Translations under genes and position numbers: made by a program
Shown: positions 30,266-49,731 of the stretch, one piece after another
How positions within the stretch are numbered: the first letter of the stretch is position 1
Layout of the letters: each line of letters opens with the position of its first letter
Origin: Candidatus Latescibacterota bacterium
Lineage (GTDB): Bacteria; Krumholzibacteriota; Krumholzibacteriia; WVZY01; JAKEHA01
Direction of reading: 5' to 3'
Assembly: GCA_963707635.1 (NCBI GenBank)
Contig: OY970173.1
Location: 768,001-832,000 of the forward strand
DNA: 64,000 nucleotides
Notes under the pieces: generated by a model
What the model was told of the DNA's origin: nothing
The model's database searches: none
What the model saw: the letters and a program-made list of their open reading frames with translations, nothing else

Positions 30266-30490
30266 GATGATCTACACCCACGTCCTGAACAAGGGCGGGC
30301 TTGGGTGAAGAGCCCCCTGGATCGGTGACGTCGAATGCCACGCAGCGTTTCTCTTGTTAGGTTGCGGGTTACGCAGTACTATCTGCAGGCTGCGAGCCGA
30401 ATCGACGGCCCGGTCAGACATTATGATGCAGCCTATGTAGTTAGGCTGCGGGCAGACAGCCGTGCAAGATCGATAGAAGACTCGTTAGTC
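30266..30490 (+). repeat. intI 3' tail + attI-like module, copy R1
   Basis: Encodes [12 protein letters not shown]...KSPLDR*; conserved 160-bp spacer; ends GATAGAAGACTC-GTTAGTC. Confidence 0.75.
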
Positions 30491-30692
30491 ACATTGACAA
30501 TAAGGAAGACGAGAATAATTCGGTTTCTCGCGATCACGGTCTGTTCGCGAGTTCTTGCCGGCAAAGCGTTCAGTCGCTAGAGTTGGATGCGGTGTCCACC
30601 CTGACGAACAAGATCGTGATTGCGCGATAGGCGCTCGTTCAGCAAGCGGTGAGCTATCGCGGGGGCCACTCGACGATTGCGGGCGCCGATGT

Positions 30693-31545
30693 CTATCTCA
30701 CCGTCACCACACAACGAAATCCGAGGTTGAACTCGCGAATGCCGGGCGGTTTGGGGGCGCGGTAGGACGACACCAGTCGGCCGGGAGCACCTTGGTTGAA
30801 CGACGCACCCCGTATAACGCGCGTTTCTCGCTCGGCGTTATACCAATCGCTGCACCACTCCCAGACATTTCCTCCCAGGTCATGGATTCCGAGCCGATTG
30901 ACGGTGTAGCCGCCCACCCTGGCCGTGAACATGACGCCGTCGGTATAGCCGTTGATCGTCCCAGACCAACCATCCCCTTCGCCTGAATAGTTTCCGCTTC
31001 CTTTTGGTGGCGGATACCCGGATCCCCAGGGATAAACATCTTCTATCTTCCTGTCTTTGTCCTCGGGGGTTGCTCCTGATTCGGCTGACAAACCCACCGC
31101 CCGGCTCCATTCTGCATCCGTGGGCAAGCGGAACTCTTGTCTCGCCGACAGCTTTCCCGCCGCTCGCTCTTTCTCCGTCAGCCACCGGCAGAATGCCTCG
31201 GCATCGTTCCAGTTCACGTGGGTAACCGGATGCAACGGCGTCTGCGAAAATACAGCGTCTGGGTCGGGGTTGAAGCCGCGCGAGGCAACCCCGGGGGCGC
31301 TCCAACCATCGCCCGCGTTGTAGCCTGTCGCCTTCACGAAGGCTTCGAAATCCTGCACCCGCGTCTCCCAGATGCAGAAGAGGACGTTCGTCCCGGGCAC
31401 CAGCACGAACTTCATGCCGAGGGAATTTTCCCACGGCTCACCGGGGCGGAGTGGCAGGCGCCGCATTTTCTTTCCGCGAACCGCCGGCGCATGCGAGAAC
31501 GGCGGCGAAAACAAGCAACGCTGAGCAAACGCGGGGAGCTTTCAT
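30693..31545 (-). CDS. Formylglycine-generating-enzyme (FGE-sulfatase/SUMF1) domain lipoprotein, apparent frameshift near 31450
   Basis: HPVTHVNWNDA, RLPTDAEW, DLGGNVWEW, LGFRC; signal/lipobox (MKAPRV...VLAC) in adjacent frame. Confidence 0.8.
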
Positions 31546-31644
31546 GGGAGAATCAGGTTCCACAGACTTGCCCTTGTCGTAGCCATCAAGCGCGTCGGCC
31601 CCTTTATAGTCCAAGCCCGAATCCTCTTCAACCTTGTTTGCGAT

Positions 31645-31814
31645 GAGCCCGCTCGGGCATGCCACGCAGCGTTCATCTTGTTAGGCAGCAGGTTACGCAC
31701 TACTATCTGCAGACTGCGGGCCGAATCGACGACCCGGTCGAATTTTGTGAAGCAGCCTACGCGGTTGGATTGTGGGCGGGCAGCCGTACAAGCTCGATAG
31801 AAGACTAGTTAGCC
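31645..31814 (+). repeat. attI-like module, copy R2
   Basis: ATGCCACGCAGCG...TCTTGTTAGG...GATAGAAGACTA-GTTAGCC. Confidence 0.75.
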
Positions 31815-31831
31815 CGCTTCAGGAGCACGTA

Positions 31832-32392
31832 ATGCGACCCCTTCGGTATTCCATCAACGTCACATTGGACGGATGCTGCGATCATCGTGAAGGGGTCGTG
31901 GACGAAGACTTGCATCGTCACGCGGCCGAGAACATCGCGCAGGCCGATGCCCTCCTCTTTGGCCGCGTGACTTACGAAATGATGGAGGCGGCGTGGCGGC
32001 CGCTGGCGCGGACGGGAGTGAGGCCTGATTGGATGGAACCTTGGATGGAACCCTTCGCCCGTACGATCGACGCGGCAAAGAAGTACGTCGTGTCGAGCAC
32101 CCTGGGTCGGGTCGATTGGAACGCGGAGCTCGTGCGCGGGGAAGTGGGGAAGGCCGTTCAGCAGCTCAAGCGGGAGTCGGGCAAGGGACTGTTCGTGGGG
32201 GGCGTGAAGCTCCCGCAGGCGTTGGCGGAGCTGGGATTGATCGATGAGTACGAGTTCGTCGTGCATCCTAGGGTAGCGGGCCATGGGCCGACGTTGTTCG
32301 CGGGGTTATCGAAGCGTGTCGACTTGAAGCTCGTGAGCCGACTGGAGTTCCGCTCGGGGGTGGTGGCGATGAAGTATAAGCCGCGAAGGTAG
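31832..32392 (+). CDS. Dihydrofolate reductase / RibD C-terminal domain protein
   Basis: SINVTLDG, LLFGRVTYE, GLIDEY; AGGAG RBS. Confidence 0.88.
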   Translation: MRPLRYSINVTLDGCCDHREGVVDEDLHRHAAENIAQADALLFGRVTYEMMEAAWRPLARTGVRPDWMEPWMEPFARTIDAAKKYVVSSTLGRVDWNAELVRGEVGKAVQQLKRESGKGLFVGGVKLPQALAELGLIDEYEFVVHPRVAGHGPTLFAGLSKRVDLKLVSRLEFRSGVVAMKYKPRR

Positions 32393-32411
32393 CCTTCCAG
32401 GAGTCCCAGGC

Positions 32412-32834
32412 ATGACGCTCACCAAAGTTGTTTGCCTCGTTTATGGCCTCTTCGGCATCCTCTATGTCCTCATCGGCGTCGGGTCTATGTTGCTGCCCAC
32501 CGGTTGGCTCCCGCAAATCCTGCAAGGCGACTTGGCTCGGGAAGCGTCGAGCCCCTTCGTCGAGCACCTACTCCAAGAATTCGGCACGGTAGTTCTTGCA
32601 CTCGGCTTGGTATTTCTCTGGTACGCGCGCGGCAAGGAGCAGAATCCCGGCTTTCACTGGGCAGTGACCTGCTACTTCGCATTGGATGCCTTGATCCATT
32701 GGGTCGGCCCCGAAGGGCTGATCGGCTCTTGGTCACGGGGCATCATCAATTCCATTCCGTTTGCGCTAATGCTGTTACTCGGATTGCTTCAGTTGCGGGC
32801 GTCAAGGCGAAGAGAGGTGCCGAGTGCCGCCTAA
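32412..32834 (+). CDS. Membrane protein (about 4 TM), cassette-type; stop codon within GCCTAAC
   Basis: AGGAG RBS; hydrophobic; attC left-arm-like sequence at 32829. Confidence 0.7.
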   Translation: MTLTKVVCLVYGLFGILYVLIGVGSMLLPTGWLPQILQGDLAREASSPFVEHLLQEFGTVVLALGLVFLWYARGKEQNPGFHWAVTCYFALDALIHWVGPEGLIGSWSRGIINSIPFALMLLLGLLQLRASRRREVPSAA

Positions 32835-32892
32835 CAAACAGTTGGACGGACCGTGGAACGGTGTCGCGGGCCCACCCATCCAACCTTCATTC

Positions 32893-32941
32893 CTCCCCTA
32901 GGGAAGTAGCAAGATGGCAACGAATCCCTGTTTGTGCGGAT
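32893..32941 (+). repeat. comM-array att arm + first 9 codons of comM fragment (truncated)
   Basis: CTCCCCTAGGGAAGTAGCAAGATGGCAACGAATCCCTGTTTGTGCGGAT. Confidence 0.75.
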
Positions 32942-33029
32942 ACGTTCTGGTGACGTCGCTGGTCATGCCGTACTATTGACGAACTGCCTGTTCGAACTGA
33001 GAACTCGTTTACGCGCGCTCCGTGAGACT

Positions 33030-35667
33030 ATGGCCCTTTCAATCGGAACTCGCCTCGGTCCGTACGAGATCACCGCTGCCCTGGGTGCGGGCGGAATGGG
33101 AGAGGTTTATCGCGGGCGCGATACGAAGCTGAATCGCGACGTCGCGCTGAAGATCCTGCCCGAGCCGTTCGCGTCGGATCCGGAGCGCCTGGCGCGCTTC
33201 CGTCGCGAGGCACAGCTGCTCGCCTCCTTGAATCACCCGCACATCGGCGCGATCTACGGCTTCGAGGAGTCGCAAGGAGTCGGCGCGCTGGTGCTGGAAT
33301 TGGTCGAAGGCACCCACGCTCGCGGATCGGATTGCACGCGGCCCGATTCCTCTCGAAGAAGTCATTCCGATGGCGCGACAGATCACCGACGCATGCGAAG
33401 CGGCGCACGCGCAGGGCATCATTCACCGCGACCTCAAGCCGTCCAACATCAAGCTGCGCCCGGATGGCGAGATCAAAGTTCTCGACTTCGGTTTGGCCAA
33501 AGCCACGGATGCGACACCCGTCACTGGTAACGACGCGTCCCAGTCACCCACCATCACCAGTCCGTCGATGACACGAGCGGGAGTGATCCTGGGGACGGCA
33601 GCATACATGAGTCCCGAGCAAGCGAAGGGTCGCGTCGCCGACCAGCGCAGTGACATCTGGGCGTTCGGGTGCGTGTTGTTCGAGATGCTCACCGGGAATC
33701 GCGTATTCCACGGTGAGGACGTGGCGGAGACACTGGCTGCGGTATTAACGAAGGAGCCCGACTGGACCCTGCTCCCGTCGGATACGCCACTGTCAATCCG
33801 GCGCGTTCTTCGTCGCTGCCTGGCGAGAGACCGGAAACGACGGCTCGCCGACATGGCGGACGTTGGAATCGAGCTCGATGATAGCGTGACCGGAGGCGCG
33901 GAACCCGGAGCGCTTTCTACGTCGCCACATCGATGGATTCCGTGGTCGATCGCGGGCGTGTCTGCCGCCATCGCGCTTTGGCTCGCGGTAAGCACGGTCT
34001 TCGATCGACCGGCCCGCGATACGCGCGTGGTTCGCAGTTCGATTCTGCTTCCGAGTGGGCTGGGAGTGCGCTCGGGCGGCACATCGGGTGCTACCCTCGC
34101 GCTTTCGGCCGACGGCCGGCGCCTGGCGTTCGTCGGCATGGACACGACTGGACACCGCCAGTTGTGGATGCGCACGCTCGACGGTTCCTCGCCCCGGCCA
34201 CTCGCCGACACCGAGGGCGCAAACTCGCCATTCTGGTCGCCCGACGGTCGATGGCTTGCGTTCGTCGCGGACGGGAAACTCAAGAAACTCGATCCATCAG
34301 GGGGTCAGGCCATCACATTGTGCGAGTCGGCCCAGAGTGGTGGTGCCTGGAATCGTGACGACATCATCCTCTTCACGCAGATCAATGGGCCGTTGGCCCA
34401 GGTCCGAGCATCGGGCGGCGCCCCATCGACCGTTACCACGCTTGCAGCCGAAGACTTTCGGCACGCGCATCCGATCTTCTTACCTGACGGCGACCATTTC
34501 GGGTACGTCGCGTTCGGACTCGGGTTTGAGGTGGCCGTCTGCGTCGCCTCGCTGACGTCAAGCGAGCGAACGCAGTTACCCCTGGACGCCGTCTTCGTAC
34601 AGTATGCGCAAGGCTTCCTGCTGTTCGCACAAGGAAGCACGCTCATGGCCCAACGGTTCGACGAGCGGCGCAATGCGCTTGTCGGCGCGGCCGTGCCCGT
34701 TGCGGAGCAACTTCGGGTCGACTATGGCTCGAGAAGCAGACACTTCAGCGTATCAGCCACGGGCGTGCTCGTGTTCCAGGAAGATCCGTCCCCGGGATTC
34801 GATCTCGTTTGGTACGACCGTCAGGGGAGACCAGTTGGGACACTCGGAACCGCGGCCGACTACTCGGATGTGTCGCTCTCGCCCGACGGACGAAGGTTGT
34901 TGGTCTCAATCGCGGAGCCGGGTACGACGAACCGCGATCTGTGGATGTTCGACGTGGCGCGGGATCTCCGTACTCGCTTCACGGTCAGTCCCGAGCAGGA
35001 GACGCACAATATCTGGTCGCCCGACGGCAAACGGATCGCGTACGACTCCTTGCGAAAAGGGCATCGTGACATGTTTCTAAAGGCCTCCGACGGTTCCGGA
35101 GACGAGGAGGTCTTGCTCGAGACCGAGTTCGATGAGAACCCCATGGACTGGTCTCCCGACGGCCGGCTCATCTCATACATCAGGCGAAGTGCCCAAACCG
35201 TGAATATCTGGATGTTGCCACTCGATGGTGATCGGAAACCCTTCCCATTCCGGGAATCATCTTTCTTCGAAATCGGAGGAAGGTTTTCGCGTGACGGGCG
35301 CTGGGTGCTCTACGTCTCGACCGAATCAGGCAGGAGTGAGGTCTACGTCTCGCGGTTTTCTAGGCCGGGTGAGAAGCTGCAAGTCTCGGCGACCGGCGGC
35401 ACCGACGCAAGGTGGGGTCCTGCTGGGAAGGAGATCTTCTACTTGTCGCTCGACGGCAAACTGATGGTTGCCACCGTGTCGACGGACGGCGATCAGTTTC
35501 GTGTCGGCGAGGTGAAGCCAATGTTCGAGCTGCAGAAGATCGGGCCGCGATTCACCTATGATATCTCGCCTGACGGTCAGCGCTTTATTGCCGTGACGCG
35601 GAAATGGGAGTCTGTCTCCGCTCCGCTCGTGCTCGTGGACAACTGGCCGGAACTCCTGGAGCAATGA
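33030..35667 (+). CDS. Ser/Thr protein kinase with TM and TolB/PD40 beta-propeller; +1 frameshift near 33312
   Basis: LGAGGMGEVY, VALK, HRDLKPSN, DFG, YMSPEQ; WSPDG repeats. Confidence 0.9.
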
Positions 35668-35744
35668 TCCAGGCACAAAGCGCATGGCACTGGCTTTGAA
35701 GCAGAGGACTCGTGACGAAGGCTGTGAAGGCCGCGCCCTCTCGC

Positions 35745-35834
35745 TTCCCTAAAGAACCAGCAGAAAGGCAACGAACTGTTGTAGTTGGGCTGCGGGCGGG
35801 CAGCAGATCAGAATCGATAGAAGACTAGTTAGGC
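35745..35834 (+). repeat. comM att arm fused to attI-like module R3
   Basis: CCCTAAAGAACCAGCAGAAAGGCAACGAAC-TGTT-GTAGTTGGGCTGCGGGC...GATAGAAGACTA-GTTAGGC. Confidence 0.75.
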
Positions 35835-35864
35835 GTCGGGAACCGGCAATCACGGACTATCTAT

Positions 35865-36281
35865 ATGGCCGAAAACAAGACCAAGCCCACCGACGCTAGC
35901 GTCGAGGACTACATCGCCTCAAGAGCCAACGCGCAGCAATGCACCGACTGCCGGGAGTTGATGGTTCTGCTCAAGAAAGTCACCCGGCACTCACCAAAAA
36001 TGTGGGGACCCAGCATCGTCGGTTATGGCTCCTACCGGTACACCTACGAGAGTGGACGAACTGGGGAATCCCCTTTGGCGGGCTTTGCCATCCGTGGCCG
36101 AGAACTGGTGGTCTACCTGTTGGCTGAAGGAGAGGAGCAAAAATCCTTGCTGTCCAAGCTTGGCAAGCACAAGATGAGCAAGGTTTGCCTGTACTTCAAG
36201 CAGCTTGCTGATCTTGATAGGTCGACGCTCGAAAAGCTTGTCGTCGGTTCGGTCGCGCAGGTAAGGCGGCGCTACGGGTAG
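35865..36281 (+). CDS. DUF1801 (YdhG-like) protein, integron gene cassette
   Basis: MAENKTKPT...MWGPSIVGYGSY...CLYFKQLADLD; bounded by GTTAGGC and attC. Confidence 0.88.
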   Translation: MAENKTKPTDASVEDYIASRANAQQCTDCRELMVLLKKVTRHSPKMWGPSIVGYGSYRYTYESGRTGESPLAGFAIRGRELVVYLLAEGEEQKSLLSKLGKHKMSKVCLYFKQLADLDRSTLEKLVVGSVAQVRRRYG

Positions 36282-36290
36282 AACGATGGC

Positions 36291-36350
36291 TCCTAACAAG
36301 TCATTCAAGCCGACGCCGCGTCGCGGCGCGGCTTAATTCAGGCGTTGGGC
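36291..36350 (+). other. Integron attC site (60 bp)
   Basis: TCCTAAC AAGTCATTCAAGCCGACGCCGCGTCGCGGCGCGGCTTAATTCAGGC GTTGGGC: inverse core, imperfect palindrome, core. Confidence 0.92.
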
Positions 36351-36381
36351 GGACCGGAGGGCGCATGGATCAGGAATCCTG

Positions 36382-36460
36382 ATGGCGGTCCCGGACTACC
36401 AGACGGTAATGCTGCCACTTCTTCGCTTCCTGTGACTCCGACTACTTCAGTGAGGAGTGA
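36382..36460 (+). pseudogene. mrr: Collapsed mrr restriction endonuclease cassette (N- and C-terminal ends only)
   Basis: MAVPDYQTVMLPLLRFL followed directly by DSDYFSEE*; followed by GTCCAAC attC left arm at 36470. Confidence 0.65.
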
Positions 36461-37220
36461 ACACACGCCGTCCAACTACAGCATGCAGCGGTACTGGAGG
36501 AGACCATGACCTATCCCCGGTGGGGTTGTAACCGCCATCGCGAGAGCCGCGCGACGCGGCGCCTCTTCATCCGATCTTAGTCGGCGGCGCGCTCGTCCCG
36601 TGGGTTACTGGCGCCTGCGTGAAGCTTTACCGCGACGCGCACGCAGCACGTGGACGTGGCCCTGGTCGGCGTTCCTCGGTCCGGGAAGGCTCGGACTTGG
36701 GCTCTTCTTAGCAGCCATTTCGGCGCTCCCCATGCAGCGTTCGCGAGCATCGCGCGGGACCATTCCCACGGGAAGCCTCCATTCCTCGGCAGTGTAGACA
36801 TGCGGAGGCGGCGGGCGGTGGTAAGTTGCAGTCTGGTTGGCGGGTGGATAGTATCGGCACGGTTCTTCTGGTCCCTGTTTTGGGATTTCCAAGAGATGTC
36901 GCTGGTCGCCGGCGCGCCGTTTCTAATTTTCTACGTTGGGATGGCATGATTGCGGGGTGAGACGCGCCGGGATGGCGGTGTGCACCCACGTTGTTTTCGC
37001 CCGGCGGCGCCACGATTGATGCCGCGGCGGGGTCACCGGGAGTTGCTGCCTAACGGGGCGAAGCCAGGGACAAAGCTTGGTTGGCGGGCACTGCATGTCC
37101 CCCTGCCCGGCAAGCGGCAGGCCGTACAATCTAATGGAGCCGATCGAAACTGGCCGCCTCATGGGGCCGAGGCTCCCGACGGCTACCGAGCGATCAACGA
37201 GCACGACCAGTCGCCCAGAA

Positions 37221-37707
37221 TTACTTCATCGCGTTTACGTGCTCCACGAACTGATCGACGGCGATCTCGGCGCCCAGGTAGAAGCCCAATGCCTTGTTCG
37301 TTTCGAGGTCCTCGTCATTGCGGTGCAGCGCCGTGAAGACGTAGTGAGTGCAGTCTCGCGGTTACCATAGTCACGATGGCAGTGATCGAGATGTCGTTAA
37401 AGACAGCCGGGCGATAGCCGGGGAACAACATCGAGATCCAGACCAGTTACTTTCATGGGAATAACGTCCAGGAAACAGCCGAGGTTGGGAATCCTGCACG
37501 TCTCCCTGTGGCCATGTCGATGCTGAAGATGCCGCCCGGTCGCACGTCCATTTCGGCTCGCGACACACGCCCCCCGGGCTTAGGCATATACCACTCCTTG
37601 AGATGCTCCGGTTTCGTCAACGCTTCCCAGACGAGCCGCTTGGGAGCGTCGATCAACCGTTGAATGGCGGAATCAAGTTTCGGATCGATCGTGAATTGCT
37701 TGTTCAT
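37221..37707 (-). pseudogene. SRPBCC/AHSA1 domain protein, frameshifted
   Basis: RLIDAPKRLVWEALTKPEHLKEW...MDVRPGG; reading frame broken. Confidence 0.7.
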
Positions 37708-38064
37708 GATTTTGATTCCTTCTCCTTGAGTTGTTTGACGTATTGGTCGAACCGGTCCAGTCGCGCTTCCCACAACTGACGACGCGCGGTCAGCCAGTCT
37801 TCAACGACCTTGCAACCGTCCGGGTGCGATCTCATACGTCCGCACCCGCCCGCGCTTTTTCGACCGCACCAGTCGGCTCTGTTCGAGCACCGAGAGGTGC
37901 TGCACGAACGATGGAAGTTGCATGTCGAACGGCGCCGCCAGTTCGGTGACGGTGGCTGGTCCGACAGACAGTCGCTCCAAAACTTTCCGCCGAGTCGGGT
38001 TGGCCAAGGCGTAAAACACGTCGTCAGCGGCTGAAGGATTGAACCATTTCCGATACCATCCCAT
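37704..38064 (-). pseudogene. ArsR-family regulator, frameshifted
   Basis: VFYALANPTRRKVL...QHLSVLEQSRLVRSKKRGR, then WEARLDRF in another frame. Confidence 0.75.
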
Positions 38065-38283
38065 GCCTGTGTTTCTGATCTGACCGGGGAAGTATAGAGC
38101 CATAGAATACTTCTGTCAATACCTAAGTATTGTCTTGAAGCGCCAACCTTCGCACGGAGACAAGAAGTCCGGCGAAGGCGGTTGCCCTTACATCGACTCG
38201 ACTGCGCGCGTGTGGCGAGCGTTCGATCTGCGCCAACGAACGCTGAAGCTGACGAACGATTTTCGGAATTGCGCGCGGCTGGT

Positions 38284-38427
38284 TTTGCGACGCACTTGCT
38301 GGAGTCCGGCACGGACATCCGGACGATCCAGGCACTGCTGGGGCACCGGGACGTGACGACGACGATGATCTACACGCACGTTCTGAACAAGGGCGGGCTC
38401 GGCGTGAAGAGCCCGTTGGACCGGTGA
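38284..38427 (+). pseudogene. intI: Integron integrase C-terminal remnant
   Basis: [47 protein letters not shown]: box II His, catalytic Tyr and IntI-type C-terminus. Confidence 0.88.
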
Positions 38428-38588
38428 TGTTGAATGCCACGCAGCGCTTATCTTGTTAGGCAGCAGGTTACGCAGTACAATCTACAGACTGCGCGCCGAA
38501 TCGACAACCCGGTCGAATGTAATGACGCAGCCTACGTAGTTGGGCTGCGGGCGGGCGGTAAACAAGATCGATAGAAGACTAGTTGGAC
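38428..38588 (+). repeat. attI-like module, copy R4, directly downstream of intI stop
   Basis: TCTTGTTAGGCAGCAGG...GTAGTTGGGCTGCGGG...GATAGAAGACTA-GTTGGAC. Confidence 0.75.
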
Positions 38589-38660
38589 GGCCAATGGGGG
38601 ATCGATGACTTCATCTAGGAGCGGCTCAGACTCTATTTCCAAGTACGATGGAGGACCATC

Positions 38661-39146
38661 ATGACGAAGATCACAAAGAACACGATTTGCCTCTGGTACG
38701 AATGCGATGGCGAGGAGGCGGCGCGATTCTATGCCAAGACCTTTCCCGATTCGTCCGTCGGCGCGGTGCATCGCGCGCCGGGCGACTTTCCGTCGGGCAA
38801 GCAAGGGGACGTATTGACAGTCGAGTTCTCCGTGATGGGTATTCCGTGCCTGGGGCTGAACGGTGGGCCCGCGTTCAAGCACAATGAATCGTTCTCGTTC
38901 CAGGTTGCCACGGAGGATCAGGCCGAAACCGATCGATATTGGAATGCGATCGTAGGCAACGGCGGCCAAGAGAGCGAGTGCGGTTGGTGCAAGGACAAGT
39001 GGGGTGTCTCCTGGCAAATTACGCCAATTGCGTTGATCAAGGCGTATACCAGCCCCGATCTCTCCGCCGCCAAGCGAGCATTCGATGCAATGATGACGAT
39101 GAAGAAAATAGACATCGCCGTGATCAAGGCGGCGGTTCGTGGCTAG
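38661..39146 (+). CDS. VOC family / PhnB-like (3-demethylubiquinone-9 methyltransferase domain) protein
   Basis: CLWY...LNGGPAFKHNESFSF...CGWCKDKWGVSWQI. Confidence 0.9.
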   Translation: MTKITKNTICLWYECDGEEAARFYAKTFPDSSVGAVHRAPGDFPSGKQGDVLTVEFSVMGIPCLGLNGGPAFKHNESFSFQVATEDQAETDRYWNAIVGNGGQESECGWCKDKWGVSWQITPIALIKAYTSPDLSAAKRAFDAMMTMKKIDIAVIKAAVRG

Positions 39147-40768: not shown

Positions 40769-41872
40769 TCATTCTGACTCTACGGACATTGCTCTTGACG
40801 TGGGAGCCCTGTTCTCAAATCGAAACCAGTGCCGGGTACGGTTGCACGCCGAACAAACGGAGAGCATCACCGGCACTTCGACCAGTACGCCGACCACAGT
40901 TGCAAGCGCGGCGCCTGAGTCGGGTCCGAAAAGCGTGATGGCCACGGCGACCGCGAGCTCAAAGAAGTTGCTGGCGCCGATCAGCGCGCCGGGTGCCGCG
41001 ATCGAATGGGCGATCCGGAACCGGCGCATCAGCAGATATGTGAGTCCGGCGTTGAAATACACCTGAATTGTGATCGGCACGGCGATCAGGAGCACGTGGA
41101 ACCAGCGACTTGTTATGTTGTCCGCCTGGAATGCGAAGATGAGCACCAGCGTGGCGAGCAGCGCGACCGTCGTCACCGGGTGGAACGCGGGCAGGTAGAC
41201 GCGTTCGAACCACTCGCGCCCCTTGGACCGGATGAGCAGCACGCGGCTCAGGCTCCCGAGCACGAGTGGAATCACGATGAACGCCACCACGCTGTAGAGG
41301 AGCACCGCGAAGGGGACCCGCAGGCTGCTCGCACCGGCCACGAGCAGGCCCACGATCGGGGCGAACAGCACCAGCATGATGAGGTCGTTGAGCGACACCT
41401 GCACCAGCGTATACGCCGGATCGCCGTCGGTGAGATACGACCATACGAATACCATCGCGGTGCACGGCGCCGCGGCCAGAATAATCGTCCCGGCGACGTA
41501 CTGGTCTGCCAGCTCCGGCCCGATCCACGGCGCGAAGAGGTGCTTGAAGAAGACCCAGCCGAGCAGGGCCATCGAGAACGGTTTGACCAGCCAGTTGACG
41601 AAGAGCGTGACGAGGATGCCGCCCGGACGGCGGCGCACACCCATGATGCTCGCGAGATCGATCTTGAGCATCATCGGGTAGATCATGAGCCAGATCAGCA
41701 CGGCGATCGGCAGGTTGATCTGGCTTCCCGTCCCGAACTCGAGGCTTCGCAACGCAGCCACCAGCCCGGGAGCGACCTTTCCGAGCGCCACTCCTGCCAG
41801 CATGCACAACCCAACCCACAGGGTCAGGTAGCGCTCGAACACGCTGAGCCGTTTCCCCGCAGCCTCAATCAT
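40769..41872 (-). CDS. acr3: ACR3-family arsenite efflux transporter
   Basis: FERYLTLWV, APCTAMV, ASNFFELAVAVA, GVLVEVPVM. Confidence 0.92.
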   Translation of the reverse strand: MIEAAGKRLSVFERYLTLWVGLCMLAGVALGKVAPGLVAALRSLEFGTGSQINLPIAVLIWLMIYPMMLKIDLASIMGVRRRPGGILVTLFVNWLVKPFSMALLGWVFFKHLFAPWIGPELADQYVAGTIILAAAPCTAMVFVWSYLTDGDPAYTLVQVSLNDLIMLVLFAPIVGLLVAGASSLRVPFAVLLYSVVAFIVIPLVLGSLSRVLLIRSKGREWFERVYLPAFHPVTTVALLATLVLIFAFQADNITSRWFHVLLIAVPITIQVYFNAGLTYLLMRRFRIAHSIAAPGALIGASNFFELAVAVAITLFGPDSGAALATVVGVLVEVPVMLSVCSACNRTRHWFRFENRAPTSRAMSVESE

Positions 41873-43055
41873 GATCGCTCGCTCGCGCCTGATCCGGCAC
41901 GCGCGGCTCCTCGTACCCCGGGGTGGGCAGCCGCAACGCGAAGCCGGGTATGACGGTGTTGGCGAGGGTGTAAACGACGAGCCCGCCGAAAATCGCCGGC
42001 GAAACGCCGAACCTCTCGCGGAGGATCTCGGCGATGATGAGGGTGAATACCAGCGTGGGCAGTATCGAAATCCCGATCCGCATCCCGACGCGAAATGATT
42101 CTCCGAGCATGACGCGCCGATGCAGGGCGACGAGGGCCATTCGGAAGGGAACCATCGTGGCGAGGAACGCGGCGCCAAGCATCAACGCCCCCACCCCGAA
42201 ATCGTCGCGCCGCAGGTGTAGCCCCGCACTGAAGAAGTAGAAAGGGACGAAGAAAGACGTGAACATCTCGACGGCGTGCACCATTTGCTCGGAGGTAATC
42301 GCGGGCAGGCGCTCACGGAATCGCTGCGCGGTAAGCCCGACGACGAACGCCCCGACGAGGTAGTAGACGCCGAGCCTTCTGGTCGCGAGGGCGCACAGGA
42401 CGGCGGTCATCAGCAGAAACGCGAACTCGGACTTGGGCGCGTAGGGCACCACCAGCCGCGCGAACGCGCGAAAGACGACGGGCAGGCCCGCGACGAGGGC
42501 GGCGAGCACGAGGGCTGAAATGGCGAGCTCCTTCACCGTCGATGATTGGAGCGTGACGAAGAGCACGGCCAGCGCAAGCAGCTCGGTCGCGATGGCCTTT
42601 GACTTGATCCAGAAGCGCTCCCGGTCCGTGACGCCGAGCGAATTGAGCGAATCGAGGATGAACCCGGTCGAGGGGGTCACGAGCGCCAGGGCGACGAGCG
42701 TCGCGGGGCGAACTGCCAGATCGAGCACCTTACACGCGAGGAAGGCGGTGCCAAGAATGGCGACCGCCTGGACCGCCAGGTGTTGAGTCAAGATCGACAC
42801 TTCCTGGCGAAGTTCGGCACGATTCACGTCGAGGCCCGCGAACAGGAACAGCGAAACGATTCCGAGCGTCGATAGCAACTGAATGGTGTGGTCTTGCTCG
42901 AAGAGGCCGAGTCCGATCCCGGCGAGGGCGCCGAGTCCCACGCTCGTCACGGCGGCTGGCAGGCGAAAGCGCTGCAGCACGCGCGGCACGACGAAAATCA
43001 AGAACAGGAGCGCGACGTACTGAAGCTCGGGCGGCAGCTTTTCGAAATACATCAT
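41865..43055 (-). CDS. Cation:proton antiporter (CPA2-like)
   Basis: LGIVSLFLFAGLD, LVGAFVVG, FFVPFYFFSAG; about 12 TM. Confidence 0.8.
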   Translation of the reverse strand: MMYFEKLPPELQYVALLFLIFVVPRVLQRFRLPAAVTSVGLGALAGIGLGLFEQDHTIQLLSTLGIVSLFLFAGLDVNRAELRQEVSILTQHLAVQAVAILGTAFLACKVLDLAVRPATLVALALVTPSTGFILDSLNSLGVTDRERFWIKSKAIATELLALAVLFVTLQSSTVKELAISALVLAALVAGLPVVFRAFARLVVPYAPKSEFAFLLMTAVLCALATRRLGVYYLVGAFVVGLTAQRFRERLPAITSEQMVHAVEMFTSFFVPFYFFSAGLHLRRDDFGVGALMLGAAFLATMVPFRMALVALHRRVMLGESFRVGMRIGISILPTLVFTLIIAEILRERFGVSPAIFGGLVVYTLANTVIPGFALRLPTPGYEEPRVPDQARASDHD

Positions 43056-43305
43056 GATATACCACGGAGCACGGCTTCACAGTACCCTGTCCCGAAGTCG
43101 GAGGCAAGCGACGGGCGGGAACGGGACCCTCACAGAATGTCGGACCACCGTGGCGATGCGGCAAACGCCGCGTGAATGAGGCCAACGTGGGAATACGCCT
43201 GCGGAAAGTTGCCCCACATGCGGGGGCTCAATTCGAGCGGGTGGTCGTGAATGTGGAATCCCGCCGGACTCCGCCATGCAGCCGTTGCGCCATGCGCCGC
43301 TAACG

Positions 43306-43339
43306 AATCGCCCCGCCCGATACGTCGGGCGGGGCGATT
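43306..43339. terminator. Strong hairpin downstream of the di-heme gene
   Basis: AATCGCCCCGCCCGA-TACG-TCGGGCGGGGCGATT perfect 15-bp stem. Confidence 0.7.
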
Positions 43340-43367
43340 TCGTTCAATGATCGCCCTGGAGGGCGAA

Positions 43368-44683
43368 CTACAGTGACTCGAGGAACGCCATCAGGGCCCT
43401 GCGGTCGCGAGAACCGAGCCTCGCGAAGTTCTTGCGGGCGTTACTCCCCTGACCATCATGCGCGAGGATCGCCGTTTCGGGCGTCGTCGCACGACCGTCG
43501 TGGAGGAACGTTGGCCGCGCCATCAGACCCCAGAGGGGCGCGGTCCGCATCTCACGAGCCCGGGCAGCGCCCTGGACAATGCCATCGCCCAGCTTGCCCA
43601 TGTCGTGCAGCAGGAAGTCCGAGTACGGGTGGAAGGTCTTGTTCGACAATGCCTGTACCGGACTGAGTCCCGTCTGGTGGGTAGGCGTATGACAGTGGGC
43701 GCAACCGGCGTTCTGGAACACCCTTTCGCCGGCCGCGGTCTGGCTGTTCGTGGGGCCCCGCGGAGGTGGGCCGAGGAAGGTCATGAAGTCCGTGAACAGA
43801 TCCACCCCTTCGCCGTCGTCGTTCAGGGCCGGTGCCGGGTTGAACTTCAACGCATCCGCGTCCCCCTGAGGCAGGTTCTCGTTCGGGAACTCCGGATTCG
43901 TGATTCCCATCTCGTTCAGGTAGGCGTCGCCGGAGAACTGGAACAACGTGGGGACCTGCGCTTTCCATCCGAAACGGCCGACGCGCATCGCGCCGGTGCG
44001 AATCTCCTTCACCATGTGGACCCTGCCCCGCGTGTCGCGGGGCTGGCGATTGGCCAGCGCCGTCAGCGCCTCGTCGGGGATGGCGTCCACCAATCCAAGA
44101 CCGAAGAGCGACGTGGTGTTTCGGAGAGCGGTCTGGTTCGCTCGTCGCGGCACGATCTCGGGTACGAACGTGAAGAACCCGGAGGATCGCCGGCCGGATC
44201 TCGATCGGTGCGGACCTTGCCGATCGCCTGATCCTGCATGAGCGAGCCGCCGAACCGGTCGAGGGGATCGAACTTCCCCTGCTCCCACTTGCCGAACCGG
44301 GTCTCGAGCCGCCCGTTGGTACCGCCGATGGGGGCATCGTGGCAATCGACGCACCCGGCCTCGTTGAATACCGGACCCAGCCCGTCCTCGACGGTCTCGA
44401 TCTCCTGGAAGTCCTCTCGGCCTGCCTCGAAACGCGCGAGCTCTTCCGGAGTCAGCCCCGCGATCGGCCCTCCCAGAGTCGTGGCCATCGCGGGACCGCC
44501 GGGGTCAGTGGAGTTGGACAACAGATCCGTCTCGCGCGTCGGCGGCGTCAGCGGCGCGGTGCTGTCCCGCTCACACCCGGCGAGTGCGATCATCGCCAGC
44601 AGGGCAAGCGCGCCGCGGGCGGTCAGGCGCGTGGACGGTGAACAGAGCACACCCTGTCTTCTGAACTGCGTTGGTGGATACAC
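43368..44683 (-). CDS. Di-heme oxidoreductase (DHOR)-family lipoprotein, frameshift near 44190-44215
   Basis: Lipobox LAGC; GLGPVFN, CVDCH and CAHCH; GRFGWKA; RTAPLWG; LHDGRA. Confidence 0.85.
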
Positions 44684-44704
44684 CGGGGCACCTCCTTGGT
44701 GCGG

Positions 44705-44829
44705 AAGAAATGCACAAAGTTCGCCCGGGCGGCTTGACTCAAAGACGCGAAGTTCGCCCGGTGGGGGCCAAAGAAATCAACGAAGAGCGCCCGGAGGGAG
44801 CTTGAAGAAATCCACGAAGTTCGCCCCGG
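44705..44829. repeat. Four ~33-bp-spaced direct repeats (consensus AAGAAATnCACGAAGTTCGCCCGG)
   Basis: AAGTTCGCCCGG-like core at 44717, 44750, 44783, 44817. Confidence 0.75.
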
Positions 44830-44936
44830 GAAGGGGTCTACCGGAAAGGGGCCTAGAGGTTGCCACAGTGGTTGTCACGCGTCAAGTAGAATGTCGTCAC
44901 CGTGCAAGCAGATCTGGCGCCAGGATGCGTTGTGAT

Positions 44937-44993
44937 GCAGCGAGCGTCTGACGGAGCGTCACATCGCGGAAGCAGTGGGTATCGGGGGCGTGA
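44937..44993 (+). pseudogene. comM: comM extreme 3' remnant
   Basis: AGCGAGCGTCTGACGGAGCGTCACATCGCGGAAGCAGTGGGTATCGGGG = SERLTERHIAEAVG(Y)RG. Confidence 0.75.
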
Positions 44994-45017
44994 AACAAGG
45001 TTGTCGTCACGACGGAT

Positions 45018-46688
45018 CTACCGCACGAGCAGGAGCTTCCTCGAGCGCTCGAGCGTCTGGCCCCCCAGTCCCACGGCGCGCAAGCGGCAGAAATAGAGCC
45101 CGGATGGCGCTGGAGTTCCGGCGTCGTCGAAGCCGTTCCAAACCGCGTTGTGCACTCCGGCCCCCTCATCCCGGCGCACCAGCGTGCGCACCCGATGCCC
45201 GGCGACATCGTAGACATCGATCTCCACGCTCGCCGCTTGAGGGAGACTGTACGAGAGCTGTGTGTTGGCCGCGAACGGATTCGGCGCGTTCTGTGCGAGC
45301 GCATGATCGACCACTGGGGTCGGCTCGGTGACGGCGGTCGGTGCGCTCCATGGAATGCAGAATCGCGCGACCGCGCCGTTCGGGGACGGGACCATCAGAC
45401 GATCGACGCTGGTCGCACCGGCGCTGCTCAGGTCAACGCTCGGATCCCACGCCGCGGCGGTCCCGACGGGTGCCGGCGACTCAGGCGTCCCACCGGCGAT
45501 GTCAATCTGCTGGACATACCCATCATCCCGTCCGACGTAGGCCTTGTTGAGTCCAGGCGCCACCGCGGGTGGGGTGACGAACGAGTTCCCACCCCCGGCG
45601 TTGACCGGCGGCCAGAGTGGAACGCCTGCAGTGCTGCCGTCCTGCACGCCGTGGAGTACTCCGGACGTGTCTACAAAGAACACCCGAGTGGGCAAGGGGG
45701 ATCGAAACTCGACCCACGGGCTGCGCAGGAGTGGCGCGCTGCTCGCGTAGGTCCATAGGAGCACTCCATTCCCAAAGCCGTCGCCATCTGGAGCCCACTT
45801 CTGGAGCGTACCGTCGATCGAGGCTGCGTACAACTCACCCGCACCGAACTGCGGCCGGCTCAGAATGGAGCCCGCATTGGCCGCCCACGCTGGCGCGCCG
45901 TTCAGGCTGCCAATCGCCCACAGGGTGGGCAGGCCAGGCGCGACCTGATCTTGATTCGTTCCGCAGTACAGACGATTGGAAGCGTAGTCGATGGCGCAGC
46001 TTTCGCTGCCGTAGTCCATCGAATAGCTGCCGGTATTATTGAATGTCCACTTGAGCGAGAGGTCGGACGCGTAGTAGGCCCGGATCCGATTCTTGGTGGA
46101 GCCCAAGTAGCAGCCGTCTGAGGGCACAGCCGAGTTGCCATTGTGCGTCATGACGAACACGAGATCATCCGGATGGCCGCGCAGCGTCATGATCGTGCTT
46201 TGGAACGTGGAGTTCGACGCCGCGTAGAGCTGCACCGCTGGCGTCGCGGTGATACGATCCGCCGTGCAGACGGCACGTCTGGTGTCCACACTCTTCGCCG
46301 TCAGGCCGGTTGCGACGTCTATTTTGTAGAGGAAGCCGTCGCTCCCTCCGACGAACAGGTACTCGAGGCCGTTGCTGAGCAAGACCGGCGAAGGAAAGTT
46401 CTCGATGGTGGTACCTGCCGACCACGTCCAGGCGACAGCTCCGCCGGTATGGACGGGCGGACCAGCGCCGGTCTCGTTCCACACCGCGTAGACCGTGGGG
46501 CCGTAGGCAAAGAAACTGAGCCCGGCGCCGAAGGGCGTGTCGGAGGCGACCTGCGTGATGGTGCTCGGAAGCTGCTCCGGAAGCTGCCATAGCGGAGCGG
46601 GCGGGCATGTTTGCGCGGCCGAGATTCCGGATGACGCTACGCCGGCAGCGATGGTGACCCAGACGAGGCGCGCACACGTTCGTCTCAT
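45018..46688 (-). CDS. Secreted PQQ-like beta-propeller protein with FlgD-Ig/secretion tail
   Basis: Signal peptide; propeller repeats; QNAPNPF...RKLLLVR. Confidence 0.82.
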   Translation of the reverse strand: MRRTCARLVWVTIAAGVASSGISAAQTCPPAPLWQLPEQLPSTITQVASDTPFGAGLSFFAYGPTVYAVWNETGAGPPVHTGGAVAWTWSAGTTIENFPSPVLLSNGLEYLFVGGSDGFLYKIDVATGLTAKSVDTRRAVCTADRITATPAVQLYAASNSTFQSTIMTLRGHPDDLVFVMTHNGNSAVPSDGCYLGSTKNRIRAYYASDLSLKWTFNNTGSYSMDYGSESCAIDYASNRLYCGTNQDQVAPGLPTLWAIGSLNGAPAWAANAGSILSRPQFGAGELYAASIDGTLQKWAPDGDGFGNGVLLWTYASSAPLLRSPWVEFRSPLPTRVFFVDTSGVLHGVQDGSTAGVPLWPPVNAGGGNSFVTPPAVAPGLNKAYVGRDDGYVQQIDIAGGTPESPAPVGTAAAWDPSVDLSSAGATSVDRLMVPSPNGAVARFCIPWSAPTAVTEPTPVVDHALAQNAPNPFAANTQLSYSLPQAASVEIDVYDVAGHRVRTLVRRDEGAGVHNAVWNGFDDAGTPAPSGLYFCRLRAVGLGGQTLERSRKLLLVR

Positions 46689-46761
46689 TGCCGTCCTCCA
46701 AGGGGATATTGTCACGCTGATGGTAACCATCCGTCGAGAACGACTCAACAACAATTCTGAC

Positions 46762-46992
46762 AACGACGATGATCTACACCCACGTTCTGAACAAGGGCCG
46801 GCTTGGAGTGAAGAGCCCGCTGGACCGGTGACAACGAATGCGTCGCAGCGCATATCTTGTTAGGCTACGAGTTGCGCTGTACTATTTGCAGGCCGCGAGC
46901 CGAAGGGAAGGCAAGGTCTGGCGTTATGATTGAGCCTATGTGGTTGGACTGCGGACGGGCAGCGTACAGGATCAATAGCAGACTAGTTGGGG
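46762..46992 (+). repeat. intI 3' tail + attI-like module, copy R5
   Basis: [22 protein letters not shown], same spacer, ends AATAGCAGACTA-GTTGGGG. Confidence 0.75.
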
Positions 46993-47001
46993 GAGGACAT
47001 T

Positions 47002-47451
47002 ATGATTGAAGCGCAGAGAACGACGACTCCGGGGAGACCGTGGCATTTGTGGTTGATCGGGATTGTCGGAGGCCTGTGGAGTTCGATCGGTGTGCTGTCC
47101 TTCATGCTCACTCAGATGAACGTCGAAGCTGTCATGAGCCGGTTTCCTCCGCAGCAGCGCGAGTACTTCGAATCGTTTCCGCTGTGGGCCGTCGCGTTCT
47201 GGGCGATCGGCGTGTTCGGTGGCGTGTTCGGGTGCCTTCTGTTGCTTCTGAAGAACCGCCTCGCGTATCATGTCTTGCTCGCCTCAGTGATCGGAGCGAT
47301 CGTTTACAATCTCGGCGGCTTGTTTCTTCTTGGCGGGATGAAGGTGATGCGCGAAACGGGTGGGTTGGGTCTCACCGTACTCCCCATTATCTTTGCCGCA
47401 TTCCTGGCGTATTACGCTCGTGCGATGAGCAAGAAGGGTGTGCCCAGCTAG
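47002..47451 (+). CDS. Membrane protein (sugar-transporter-like small family), cassette-type
   Basis: PWHLWLIG...PLWAVAFWAIGVFGG; GGAGG RBS. Confidence 0.75.
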   Translation: MIEAQRTTTPGRPWHLWLIGIVGGLWSSIGVLSFMLTQMNVEAVMSRFPPQQREYFESFPLWAVAFWAIGVFGGVFGCLLLLLKNRLAYHVLLASVIGAIVYNLGGLFLLGGMKVMRETGGLGLTVLPIIFAAFLAYYARAMSKKGVPS

Positions 47452-47500
47452 CCTCGCTACGACGACAGAACGCATCTTGGTTCACTACACGCCTACGAAA

Positions 47501-47986
47501 ATGAAGAGTATGAAAATGCACAAACCAGTCTTTACCGAAACGATGCAGATCGGGATCGTGGTGCGCGACCTCGATGCGACGATGCGAAGATACGTTGATA
47601 ACTACGGGATCGGTCCGTGGCAGGTCCATCAGTTCAAGCGTGAAGACGTCAAAGAGTGGTTTGAGCATGGCCAGCCGCTTGAGCCCTCGACGCGCATCGC
47701 TACCGCTATGGTTGGCCACATGCAATGGGAGCTGATCCAGCCGCTCGACGATAAGAGCATCTTTGCGCGGTTCCTTGCTGAGAAGGGAGAAGGCGTGCAT
47801 CATATCGCCGTCGCTACGATGAACTTCGACGAGACGCTCGAGGCGGAGGCGAAGCGAGGGAACGATTTGGTCCTTAGCTGCGAGTTGAGCGGCAAGTTCA
47901 GCGGCATAAAGGTCGCTTACCTCGGCACCCAGAGCGATCTTGGAGTGATCCTCGAGATCTTCAACGATCTGCCCAAAGGCAAATAG
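47501..47986 (+). CDS. VOC family (methylmalonyl-CoA epimerase-like) protein
   Basis: QIGIVVRDLD, ELIQP, GEGVHHIA. Confidence 0.85.
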   Translation: MKSMKMHKPVFTETMQIGIVVRDLDATMRRYVDNYGIGPWQVHQFKREDVKEWFEHGQPLEPSTRIATAMVGHMQWELIQPLDDKSIFARFLAEKGEGVHHIAVATMNFDETLEAEAKRGNDLVLSCELSGKFSGIKVAYLGTQSDLGVILEIFNDLPKGK

Positions 47987-48077
47987 AAGCTTGCCGCGAG
48001 CTGTTCAGCGGACGTCGTCTAATTCGCGTGCGTCAGCCTGGCGAGGAGTTGTGGCTGCCGGCGCGTTGCGGGTACGC

Positions 48078-48864
48078 ATGGATGCACGATCATCATTGAG
48101 AACCGAAAGATACGGACCCCTCGAGGACCAGGTGGGAGATCTGTATCTTCCGGCGAATCCGTGGCCACAAGTGGTCTGCCTTCTGCACGGAGGATTCTGG
48201 CGAATGCCACATGGCCGGGACCAGATGACATCCATCGCTCAGGACCTTGCATGTCGTGGTTTTGCAGTCTGGAATCTGGAGTACCGTCGCCTGGGAGCAT
48301 CCGCTGGCGGATGGCCGGGCACCTTCGACGATGCGATCGCGGGCATCGAGCATCTCGCCAGTCTTGTCTCTGCCGGAATTGACCTCGACCTCGATCGCAT
48401 CGCCATCGTTGGCCATTCCGCTGGAGGACAACTGGCATTGTGGTCGGCGGCGCGCAAACGAGGTGCCCGGAAGGGCGGGACAGCGGAACGAATTCGAGAT
48501 CAGGGCAGCAGTCGGTCTGGCTCCGGTGGCTGACCTCGTTCGTGCCTACGAGTTGAATCTCGGTGGAGGCGCCGTCGCGGAACTTCTGGGCGGAACACCG
48601 ACCGACCAGGCTGTGCGCTACCAGGCAGCCTCCCCTCGCGCGATGCTGCCGTTGGACGTATTGCAACTCGTCATCCATGGCACCGCCGACGATATCGTTC
48701 CTGTCGAGATCGCCCGCAGCTACACACAAGCAGCCCGAAGTGCTGGTGACAGGGTCGAGTTGGTGGAGTTGTCCGACACAGGTCACATGGATTATCTCGA
48801 CCCGTCCAGCGCAGCCCATGCAGCTCTTTGCGACTGGCTTGCCCGGAACTCGAGCGGGCGTTAG
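48078..48864 (+). CDS. Alpha/beta hydrolase, frameshift near 48495
   Basis: HGGFW, GHSAGG, HGTADDIVP, GHMD in two frames. Confidence 0.8.
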
Positions 48865-48882
48865 ACCGCAGACGAAATAACA

Positions 48883-49617
48883 ATGACCGACTGGTTCCAG
48901 ACCTTGGTCGCCACGACCGCTCTCCCGATGGGTGCCGCAACAGACCTGGAAAAGAGGGGCTTCGTCGTACTCCCCGAGGCGGTGCCGTCGATCCGGTTGG
49001 ACCGCCTTTCCAACGCATATGACGCCGCGGTGGAGTCCGCGCGGGGGGACGACATCAGGGTTGGCACCACGTCCACGCGGGTGACCGATTTCGTCAACCG
49101 CGGTCCGGAGTTTGACGAAGTCTACCTGTATCCGCCGCTGCTTCAGGCCTGCTGCAACGTCATAGGCGCTCCCTTCAAACTGAGTTCGTTGCAGGCGAGG
49201 ACACTCCACGCGGGCGCGCCCGGCCAAGGGTTGCACGTAGATGTGGATCGCCTGTCCGCCGACTGGCCGCTTCTGGGTTTCATCTTGATGGTCGACGAAT
49301 TCCGGCCGGACAACGGGGCGACCCGCTTCGTGCCGGGGTCGCACAGGCGGGCCGATATTCTGGCCGGGGGTATTCCGGAGACCGCGCTCGTCGATGCCGA
49401 GCAGGTTCCGGCGTGCGGCGCCGCGGGCTCACTGCTCGTCTTCAACGGGTCTACGTGGCATGGGCACGGTACGAATATCTCGAGCGCGCCACGGCGGTCG
49501 CTCCAAGGCGCCTACATTCCCCGGGGTGGCCGCGCGGGAACCGCTTTCGGGTCTCGCATGCAACCGGCAACACGCGCCCGCCTCATCCCGCTGGCGCAGT
49601 ACTTACTCGCGCTCTGA
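48883..49617 (+). CDS. Phytanoyl-CoA dioxygenase (PhyH) family protein
   Basis: LHVD, NGATRFVPGSH, WHG. Confidence 0.85.
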   Translation: MTDWFQTLVATTALPMGAATDLEKRGFVVLPEAVPSIRLDRLSNAYDAAVESARGDDIRVGTTSTRVTDFVNRGPEFDEVYLYPPLLQACCNVIGAPFKLSSLQARTLHAGAPGQGLHVDVDRLSADWPLLGFILMVDEFRPDNGATRFVPGSHRRADILAGGIPETALVDAEQVPACGAAGSLLVFNGSTWHGHGTNISSAPRRSLQGAYIPRGGRAGTAFGSRMQPATRARLIPLAQYLLAL

Positions 49618-49665
49618 CATCCGGGGCTGCAGGGCCACAGGAGGCTCATGCCAGGCGGACGATGG

Positions 49666-49731
49666 TCTTGTTGGGCTGCGGGTGGCGCAGTACAATCTGC
49701 AGTCTGCGGGCGGCCCGGTCCGTCGTTAGGC
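49666..49731 (+). repeat. Partial attI-like module, copy R6
   Basis: TCTTGTTGGGCTGCGGGTGGCGCAGTACAATCTGCAG...GTTAGGC. Confidence 0.6.

Follow-up and report, generated by a model that had tools for sequence, protein, structure and literature searches.

Integron biology rests on one intI, one attI and one array, and attI sites have been defined for very few classes. How can a bacterial chromosome come to carry six attI-like modules within 20 kb, with no usable intI among them? The locus that raises this question lies in a stretch of 64 kb (called the window below), which is positions 768001-832000 of the single-contig 3.2-Mb genome (G000) of an uncultured soil bacterium. The GC content of the window is about 0.6, and public records of metagenome-assembled genomes (MAGs) with the same repeat carry the label Krumholzibacteriia. 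On balance we favour the view that the six modules are relics of co-oriented integron platforms, in which the integrase gene intI is followed on the same strand by attI, and that they piled up, as we infer, when blocks bearing a donor's platform were spliced serially into a hot spot at the competence gene comM.

Copies of the module were identified by repeat finding, by alignment with MAFFT, and by a blastn search of the whole genome with the longest of them (copy 4). Six were found on the plus strand, at 30266-30486, 31659-31810 (judged by eye to begin at about 31637), 35781-35830, 38270/38284-38590, 46758-46990 and 49648-49711. The initial annotation of this DNA had described six copies of one repeat, and this stands: the six are co-oriented and confined to 20 kb, and the blastn search of the 3.2-Mb genome returned no further copy, its sole extra match being a gene of the Xer type (genome position 1959355). 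The lengths of the copies vary more than the 160-230 bp stated there would suggest, from 50 to 306 nucleotides (nt), with individual values of approximately 221, 152-174, 50, 306, 233 and 64-90 nt for copies 1 to 6.

Relic 4, the longest (38284-38584), consists of the last 47 codons of intI and the stop (38284-38427), followed by a predicted attI of 157 bp that ends in GTT at 38582-38584. Relic 5 (46757-46988) retains the last 24 codons and the stop, and its predicted attI has the core AATAGCAGACTA followed by GTT at 46986-46988. In relic 1 (30264-30486) the tail is of 22-23 codons with an internal stop (GLG, stop, RAP), and the core is GATAGAAGACTC followed by GTT at 30484-30486. The other three have at most a few intI codons left. 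Relic 2 (31637-31810) has a few such codons, with a deletion of 12 nt, and a predicted attI ending in GTT at 31808-31810; relic 3 (35781-35830) is reduced to the last 50 nt of the predicted attI, comprising the second GTTGGGCTGCGGG repeat and the core, with GTT at 35828-35830; and relic 6 (49648-49737) has the first conserved block followed by a degenerate remainder with no recognisable core, and a 20-nt deletion between two GTTA repeats can be seen by eye. The proposal that the longer copies encode the C-terminus of IntI is therefore clean for copies 4 and 5 and is qualified in copy 1 by the internal stop.

The coding part is identified by its match to the curated model TIGR02249 (integron integrase): the open reading frame (ORF) of 81 amino acids at 38182-38427 aligns with positions 267-314 of 315, with a score of 84.7-86 bits. 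Taking the cut-off of this model (265 bits) as the criterion for an intI, a family search of the genome found none, the best match being the 47-codon tail, and tblastn with three IntI proteins found only tails in the window; elsewhere in the genome, tblastn found only XerC/D-type genes. The same DNA is present in 22 of the 41 related genomes searched, although some of these matches are Xer cross-matches. Long IntI frames with this 3' flank, which the initial annotation had proposed to look for, were found at four loci. The locus G009:C205, from the same genus, scores 418.7 bits over model positions 32-314, with the first 35 positions in another frame, so that this intI is probably frameshifted. 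The intI of G036 scores 447.8 bits, and that of G024, which belongs to another genus of the same order, is full length and scores 452.6 bits. The fourth is a metagenome contig of 1763 nt with the attI type of the window (L044), in which the 3' end of comM is followed by intI (model positions 46-314, 397.9 bits) and then by a spacer that is 85.5% identical to relic 4 over 300 nt. The long homologues contain the IntI-specific segment ALPxALxRKxPxAxxEWxWQWVFP..RRHH. This excludes the alternative that the gene is of the XerC/D type, which had been named as one of two observations that would overturn the annotation, and the sequence evidence identifies the coding part as the C-terminal end of an integron integrase.

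The spacer behind the tail is conserved in three blocks, namely CTTGTTAGGCTGCGGGTTACGCAGTACTAT, GCAGCCTATGTRGTTAGGCTGCGGG and the core. At every homologous locus, even in G024, the intI stop is followed by approximately 160 bp ending in TAGAAGAMTA and then GTTRRR. Both of the repeated elements that had been noted in the spacer are real. The core GATAGAAGACTAGTT, with up to 3 mismatches, has 6 matches in the window against 0.32 expected, of which five are the plus-strand ends of copies 1-5 (five of the six copies end in AGACTMGTT, the GTTRRRY-like core that had been claimed). The internal direct repeat GTTRGGCTGCGGG, with up to 2 mismatches, has 15 matches in the window where 4.09 are expected, 11 of them within the six copies. 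Similarity ends sharply at the core, again as described: for the five core-bearing copies of the window, mean ungapped identity over 40 nt is 0.68 to the left of GTT and 0.27 to the right of GTTRRRY, and in 12 copies (five from the window and seven from relatives) the corresponding values are 0.55 on the left and 0.26, which is the background level, on the right, with no extension past the core, the other observation that would have overturned the annotation.

Together with the core, the spacer contains three direct boxes of the GTTRGGC type. We suggest that it is an IntI-binding attI, with the boxes laid out like DR1, DR2 and R of attI1 as set out in PMC12901181. Its sequence is specific to the lineage, since a pattern scan of GTDB species representatives matched only MAGs of this genus; a pattern match in an AT-rich record (L038) was rejected as a chance match. 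An Rfam scan of the window gave no family at gathering score and no attC match.

In the relatives G009:C205 and G002:C41 and in L044, intI, the spacer of approximately 160 bp, the core, a gene and an attC follow one another on one strand. The layout intI-attI-cassette-attC, all on one strand, is thus established for this lineage, the attI function being predicted from this anatomy. The layout in these relatives and in metagenome contigs supports the earlier suggestion of an integron with an inverted integrase and with attI downstream of intI. The loci in G009:C205 and G002:C41 represent a second integron locus in the genus, in which a gene for an AddA-like UvrD/PD-(D/E)XK helicase-nuclease is followed by intI, attI and cassettes (L018 for G009:C205 and L023 for G002:C41); the attI lineage on the AddA side is distinct, being approximately 60-70% identical to the type found behind comM. 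Two further arrangements were seen. In the metagenome contig L049 (1340-1560) two partial attI modules stand in tandem, 45 nt apart, the first running through the core and the second keeping only the first conserved block, and in G016:C201 (L025, approximately 3890-4620) an intI remnant with attI has as its immediate neighbour a lexA-like gene on the other strand.

Simple scans for attC sites by regular expression and folding were either empty or swamped by false positives in coding regions, and were replaced by a stricter scan and a covariance model, which was built from 12 sites (one from the window and 11 from relatives) and is not the model used by IntegronFinder. Among the sites outside its training set that it recovers are those that immediately follow the cassette next to the core, both in G009:C205 and G002:C41 and in the metagenome loci L042, L045 and L048, which are of the comM type. 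There are attC arrays also in G002:C89, where a gene and an attC come after the core, and in G002:C23. In the 64 kb of the window, with all filters off, the model finds one full attC and one collapsed attC. The full site (36288-36353, plus strand), which runs from R'' CCTAAC to R' GTTGGGC, scores 65.6 bits and is itself a training member of the model. Between it and the core of relic 3 lies a DUF1801 gene (35865-36281, plus strand), which is the only bona fide cassette in the window. In the collapsed site (32826-32850, plus strand) R'' CCTAAC and R' GTTGGAC are 3 nt apart, and both flanks match the model (16.8 bits, E 0.07); it comes after relic 2, a RibD_C gene and a gene of 140 amino acids. 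A single full attC in window and genome is fewer than the at least two clustered sites that define a CALIN (cluster of attC sites lacking an integron integrase). Because there is no intI and only one attC, the integron system here is predicted to be nearly dead, and would be inert unless IntI were supplied in trans.

ORF calls place a co-oriented gene soon after copies 2-6, in agreement with the five of six originally reported; the gene after copy 1 is an FGE-sulfatase on the minus strand. Behind relics 4-6 come small genes in the same orientation, cassette-like in kind (3-demethylubiquinone-9 3-methyltransferase fold, DinB, glyoxalase, PhyH, aldo-keto reductase and DUF3224) but too tightly packed to leave room for attC sites. 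The DinB protein has a 61%-identical relative encoded approximately 100 nt downstream of an attC (L027 8051-8120) in G002:C23. In the strict sense, the description of the downstream genes as cassette-type applies to relic 3 only, with its DUF1801 gene and attC; the other copies are without a full attC.

Pieces of comM occur near and among the relics, and it is directly downstream of this gene, in the same orientation, that the integron of this genus is found. An intI remnant or an attI lies 4-40 nt behind an intact comM in G014:C34, G009:C82, L042, L044, L045 and L048. The resident comM of the window (a Mg-chelatase-like ATPase; 4735-6361, plus strand) is frameshifted near 5960, and is either a frameshifted pseudogene or the result of an assembly error. 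We note that it reads for 434 codons and then continues in another frame, with one extra base near 5960 relative to the fragments described next. Five complete 3' fragments of comM, A to E, lie on the plus strand at 11760-12285, 13745-14255, 18704-19215, 20905-21409 and 24031-24575, separated by cargo genes. Each is an intact ORF made up of the last 160 comM codons; they are 74-96% identical to one another, and they share one left edge and an upstream arm, CCTCCCCTAAAGAAG..GGCAACGAACCCCTG. Fragment D, together with a BNR gene, is common to the congener G012 (87.6% identical over 3 kb, window 20968-23948 and L013 1857-4872), and fragment E carries a 35-nt comM flank of the native type. We observed in addition that the shared island, which consists of the type D comM 3' end and a minus-strand gene for a secreted BNR-repeat/FlgD_ig protein, ranks first in the array of G012 and fourth in that of G000.

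Smaller pieces follow, all on the plus strand: a partial comM 3' remnant covering residues 41-76 of the fragment protein (25143-25253), an island arm with the first 9 fragment codons between relics 2 and 3 (32892-32940), a second island arm joined directly to relic 3 (35737-35776), and, 1.8 kb upstream of relic 5, what is left of the final 17 comM codons (44939-44989). They are interleaved with the relics, and relics 1 and 2 are located between fragment E and the arm at 32892. The comM fragments look like the scars of tandem islands, each of which would have brought a replacement 3' end. The picture of a graveyard of platforms, drawn in the initial annotation, is right in that the multiple relics are real; what it missed is that they are embedded in a hot spot of island accretion at comM. 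The possibility that the island arm (CCCTAAAGAAG..) is itself an attI- or attC-like site for IntI was considered and rejected, as the resemblance is superficial.

The loss of most of intI from each platform, which had been proposed, is evident from the 0-47 codons that remain. Across the family, only two of 23 genomes have an IntI above the cut-off, and all other IntI-type matches are C-terminal tails. The left edges differ in every copy and also between genomes that share the same flank. Thus G012 is without the entire intI tail that G000 keeps beside the same ArsR operator, and in place of the long gene of G009:C205, G002:C41 keeps 52 intI codons. The junctions behind comM are located at IntI model position 46 in L044, at approximately position 238 in G014, and at or after the stop in L042 and G009:C82, and this set reads as a deletion series from the left. 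Four of the six left junctions have a GTT triplet a few bases away, in a post hoc count of junctions that are fuzzy.

The relics are 73-84% identical to each other, and the backbone identity between species of the genus is 73-79%. Relic 1 is nearest to the copy in G016 (86%) and relic 5 to that in G008 (83%). In the tree the six relics are not monophyletic, and only relics 2 and 4 pair (98/93 support). Such divergence indicates that the six are not recent local duplicates, and since it matches the range between species, we consider that the relics may well be of foreign origin. The congener G012 has a single attI in the homologous region, and five of the six relics lie in three blocks that are specific to G000 when the two are compared. 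The first block, of 12.6 kb, runs from fragment E to the shared ArsR flank and holds relics 1-3 and the two comM-island arms. The left flank of relic 4, with ArsR/AHSA1 genes on the minus strand, is common to both genomes. A second block of 8.4 kb, absent from G012, runs from relic 4 to relic 5; the two genes after relic 5 (X and Y) match, at 91% and 95% protein identity, those that follow the one attI of G012. The third block, of 1.8 kb, ends in relic 6. A di-haem oxidoreductase (DHOR) block at 43298-44907 is 85.5% identical to L013 9271-10858. It is upstream of relic 5 in G000 and downstream of genes X-Y-Z in G012, which is a circular permutation and hints at a circular intermediate.

These observations lead us to lean, as stated at the outset, towards serial splicing at comM. 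Islands that integrate into comM would carry a replacement comM 3' end. An island excised from a donor could then take along the DNA behind the donor's comM, that is intI, attI and cassettes, so that platforms would stack head-to-tail; redundant copies of intI would subsequently be removed by deletions from the left, which would give variable left edges and a fixed right edge. Such hitch-hiking is expected to leave a native comM flank at the head of a block, and fragment E, which heads the segment with relics 1 and 2, fits this. Since no recombinase of the comM site was found, island integration at comM is deduced from its scars only. Hitch-hiking on islands is in our view the most likely main route, and both it and recombination by IntI, considered below, may have acted.

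Several observations weigh against this account. No match to a Pfam or NCBIfam recombinase family was found in the cargo of the window, G012 or G013, several cargo ORFs belonging to no family. The comM remnants and the relics do not correspond one-to-one, and the last island arm that can be recognised is to the left of relics 4-6. With its ends in relics 4 and 5, the 8.4-kb block is better accounted for by recombination of one attI with another than by integration at comM. No remnant of the N-terminal part of intI alone was seen, by tblastn in the window or in the 23 family genomes, which is slightly odd for random deletions. Most of the other forks in the relic tree are without resolution. 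Finally, the whole genome gave only the one full attC at 36288-36353 again, with 150 of 7814 first-look candidates scored.

The most serious alternative, which we consider possible but the less probable of the two routes, is that IntI itself stacked the attI relics: circular DNA carrying intI and attI would have recombined, attI by attI or attI by attC, at the core of a resident attI, and later attI-by-attI events could have deleted blocks. A right edge fixed at GTT with variable left edges agrees with this, and so does the comparison at the 8.4-kb block, where G012 has one attI between the same ArsR flank (87%) and the same X and Y genes, and G000 has relic 4, 8.4 kb and relic 5. The left part of the attI of G012 is nearer to relic 4 (36/44 and 23/28) than to relic 5 (32/44 and 19/28), and it carries the downstream flank of relic 5. 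Relics 4 and 5 share an unbroken exact match of at most 18 nt (12 nt within the attI part, by eye), which is short for homologous recombination; recombination of the RecA type needs longer identity than this. The bases after the cores resemble the R' end of an attC, GTTRGRCGG, and the circular permutation of the DHOR block and X-Y between G000 and G012 also favours IntI. Both attI1-by-attI1 and attI-by-attC cointegrate pathways are named in PMC12901181. However, the attC model finds no attC or half attC where stacking by IntI needs one, for example after gene Y or to the left of the intI tails, and no recognisable sites mark the left junctions. The platform of G002:C23, where six attC sites are followed by a minus-strand gene and then by an intI tail and attI, meets the array within a cassette ORF that is truncated, a junction that is illegitimate. 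A crossover cannot be placed in the G012 attI, its core being too degenerate, and the interleaved comM arms and remnants are left unexplained. We retain serial splicing of platform-bearing blocks at comM as the preferred explanation.

A broader proposal, which we put forward only tentatively, is that the platform of intI, attI and cassettes, with its place directly behind comM, is itself mobile cargo between species. It might travel by way of comM islands without an integrase, or by attI-by-attI fusion driven by IntI, or by both, and so build tandem arrays in which the attI modules would outlive the integrases as promoters.

The last part of this proposal may be considered separately, and is compatible with the other explanations. 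The relics would persist as promoter and leader modules, with TTGTTA, 17 nt and TACWAT forming a cassette promoter, directed towards the genes downstream and kept by selection. The block CTTGTTAGGCTGCGGGTTACGCAGTACTAT is the best conserved across copies, and it alone is retained in G013 and in relic 6; co-oriented genes follow five of the six relics, and relic 4 passes a sigma-70 scan at 9 of 12, with a consensus that may not be that of the host phylum. On the other hand, the scan gave four sites in the region against 4.2 expected, with the other copies below threshold, and terminator counts are likewise at the level of shuffled sequence. Relic 3 is without the block, and yet it heads the only intact cassette. 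A role as promoters is accordingly doubtful.

Local duplication of one platform in this genome, followed by divergence, would account for six co-oriented copies within 20 kb and for the pairing of relics 2 and 4 in the tree. It is very improbable, given that the copies do not form a single clade and differ from each other as much as from copies in other species, that their flanks are unrelated, and that five of the six lie in blocks absent from G012. Least credible of all is a site of another tyrosine recombinase (Xer/dif-like, or an island att) in place of an integron attI, which would draw on an 8-6-8 palindrome in the second repeat (GCAGCCTA-TGTAGT-TAGGCTGC) and on the similarity of G012 ending just after it, but in the 12 copies similarity runs 50 nt past the palindrome to GTT, the adjoining gene is IntI by a curated model, and attC arrays follow in relatives.

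Some other features of the window may be recorded here. The ArsR-type helix-turn-helix and AHSA1-like ORFs at 37453-38103 (minus strand) are separate in G000 (100 and 106 amino acids) and form one ORF of 279 amino acids in G012 (L013 6387-7226), and the split is likely to be a frameshift or a split gene. A gene for a Ser/Thr kinase with a PD40 beta-propeller (33031-35667) has comM-island arms on both sides and appears to be frameshifted near 33310-33370. Within the 12.6-kb block, a CHAT-domain protease with TPR repeats adjoins a zf-HC2 anti-sigma-like TPR protein (25316-28818, minus strand). A 34-nt tandem repeat of 2.4 copies, with unit CGAAGTTCGCCCGG.., occupies the intergenic positions 44748-44826, just before the comM-end remnant.

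The locus provides a predicted attI, defined in sequence, for the co-oriented integrons of an uncultured lineage, with a fixed address behind comM. It also offers platforms that have decayed to different degrees, a natural series that bears on how platforms are gained, stacked and lost, and it gives concrete form to the question of whether attI-by-attI recombination or hitch-hiking on islands moves whole platforms. If attI relics do persist as promoters, capture sites of this kind would escape tools that require an intI or two or more attC sites.

Three of the components of this system are known already, namely co-oriented integrons, decayed integrons or CALINs, and delta-attI remnants. PMC3607928 and PMC4889954 describe an inverted integron-integrase group with the co-oriented arrangement (the Treponema denticola type), which is reported to be paraphyletic (Cury et al., PMC4889954). 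The loci described here share with it a co-oriented intI with attI at its 3' side, and homologous loci have an IntI above the TIGR02249 cut-off; here, in contrast, there are six relics in 20 kb, no usable intI, one full attC, and a lineage-specific attI fixed behind comM. With CALINs and decayed integrons, as presented by Cury et al. (2016, PMC4889954), where intI pseudogenes are near 15 of 279 CALINs, the window has in common that the integrase is lost and C-terminal pseudogene pieces of IntI are left, whereas it is the attI side that survives here, in six copies, and not an array with two or more attC sites. The delta-attI remnants of PMC12901181 are 11-238 bp long and take the place of the attC in one resistance cassette of a mobile integron whose intI is divergent. 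The window resembles these, and the class 1 and class 2 cointegrates, in having attI-derived sequence inside an array and in that IntI can recombine attI with attI, but differs in that its predicted attI sites are whole, come with intI tails and stand at the heads of multi-kilobase blocks, in an integron that is sedentary and co-oriented. In the literature outside subscription journals and supplements we found no description of several full attI sites, with intI tails, stacked at one locus of a chromosomal integron, or of an integron behind comM.

Tandem genomic islands at the 3' ends of genes carry a replacement end, and tRNA and tmRNA genes are hot spots for them. The comM fragments share with such islands a constant left edge, intact ORFs, divergence at the level found between species, and one member in common with G012. 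They differ in that no island integrase was found. The attI relics mirror this geometry, having a constant right edge, and are because of this to be seen as cargo, or as the product of a second process, rather than as the att scars of the islands.

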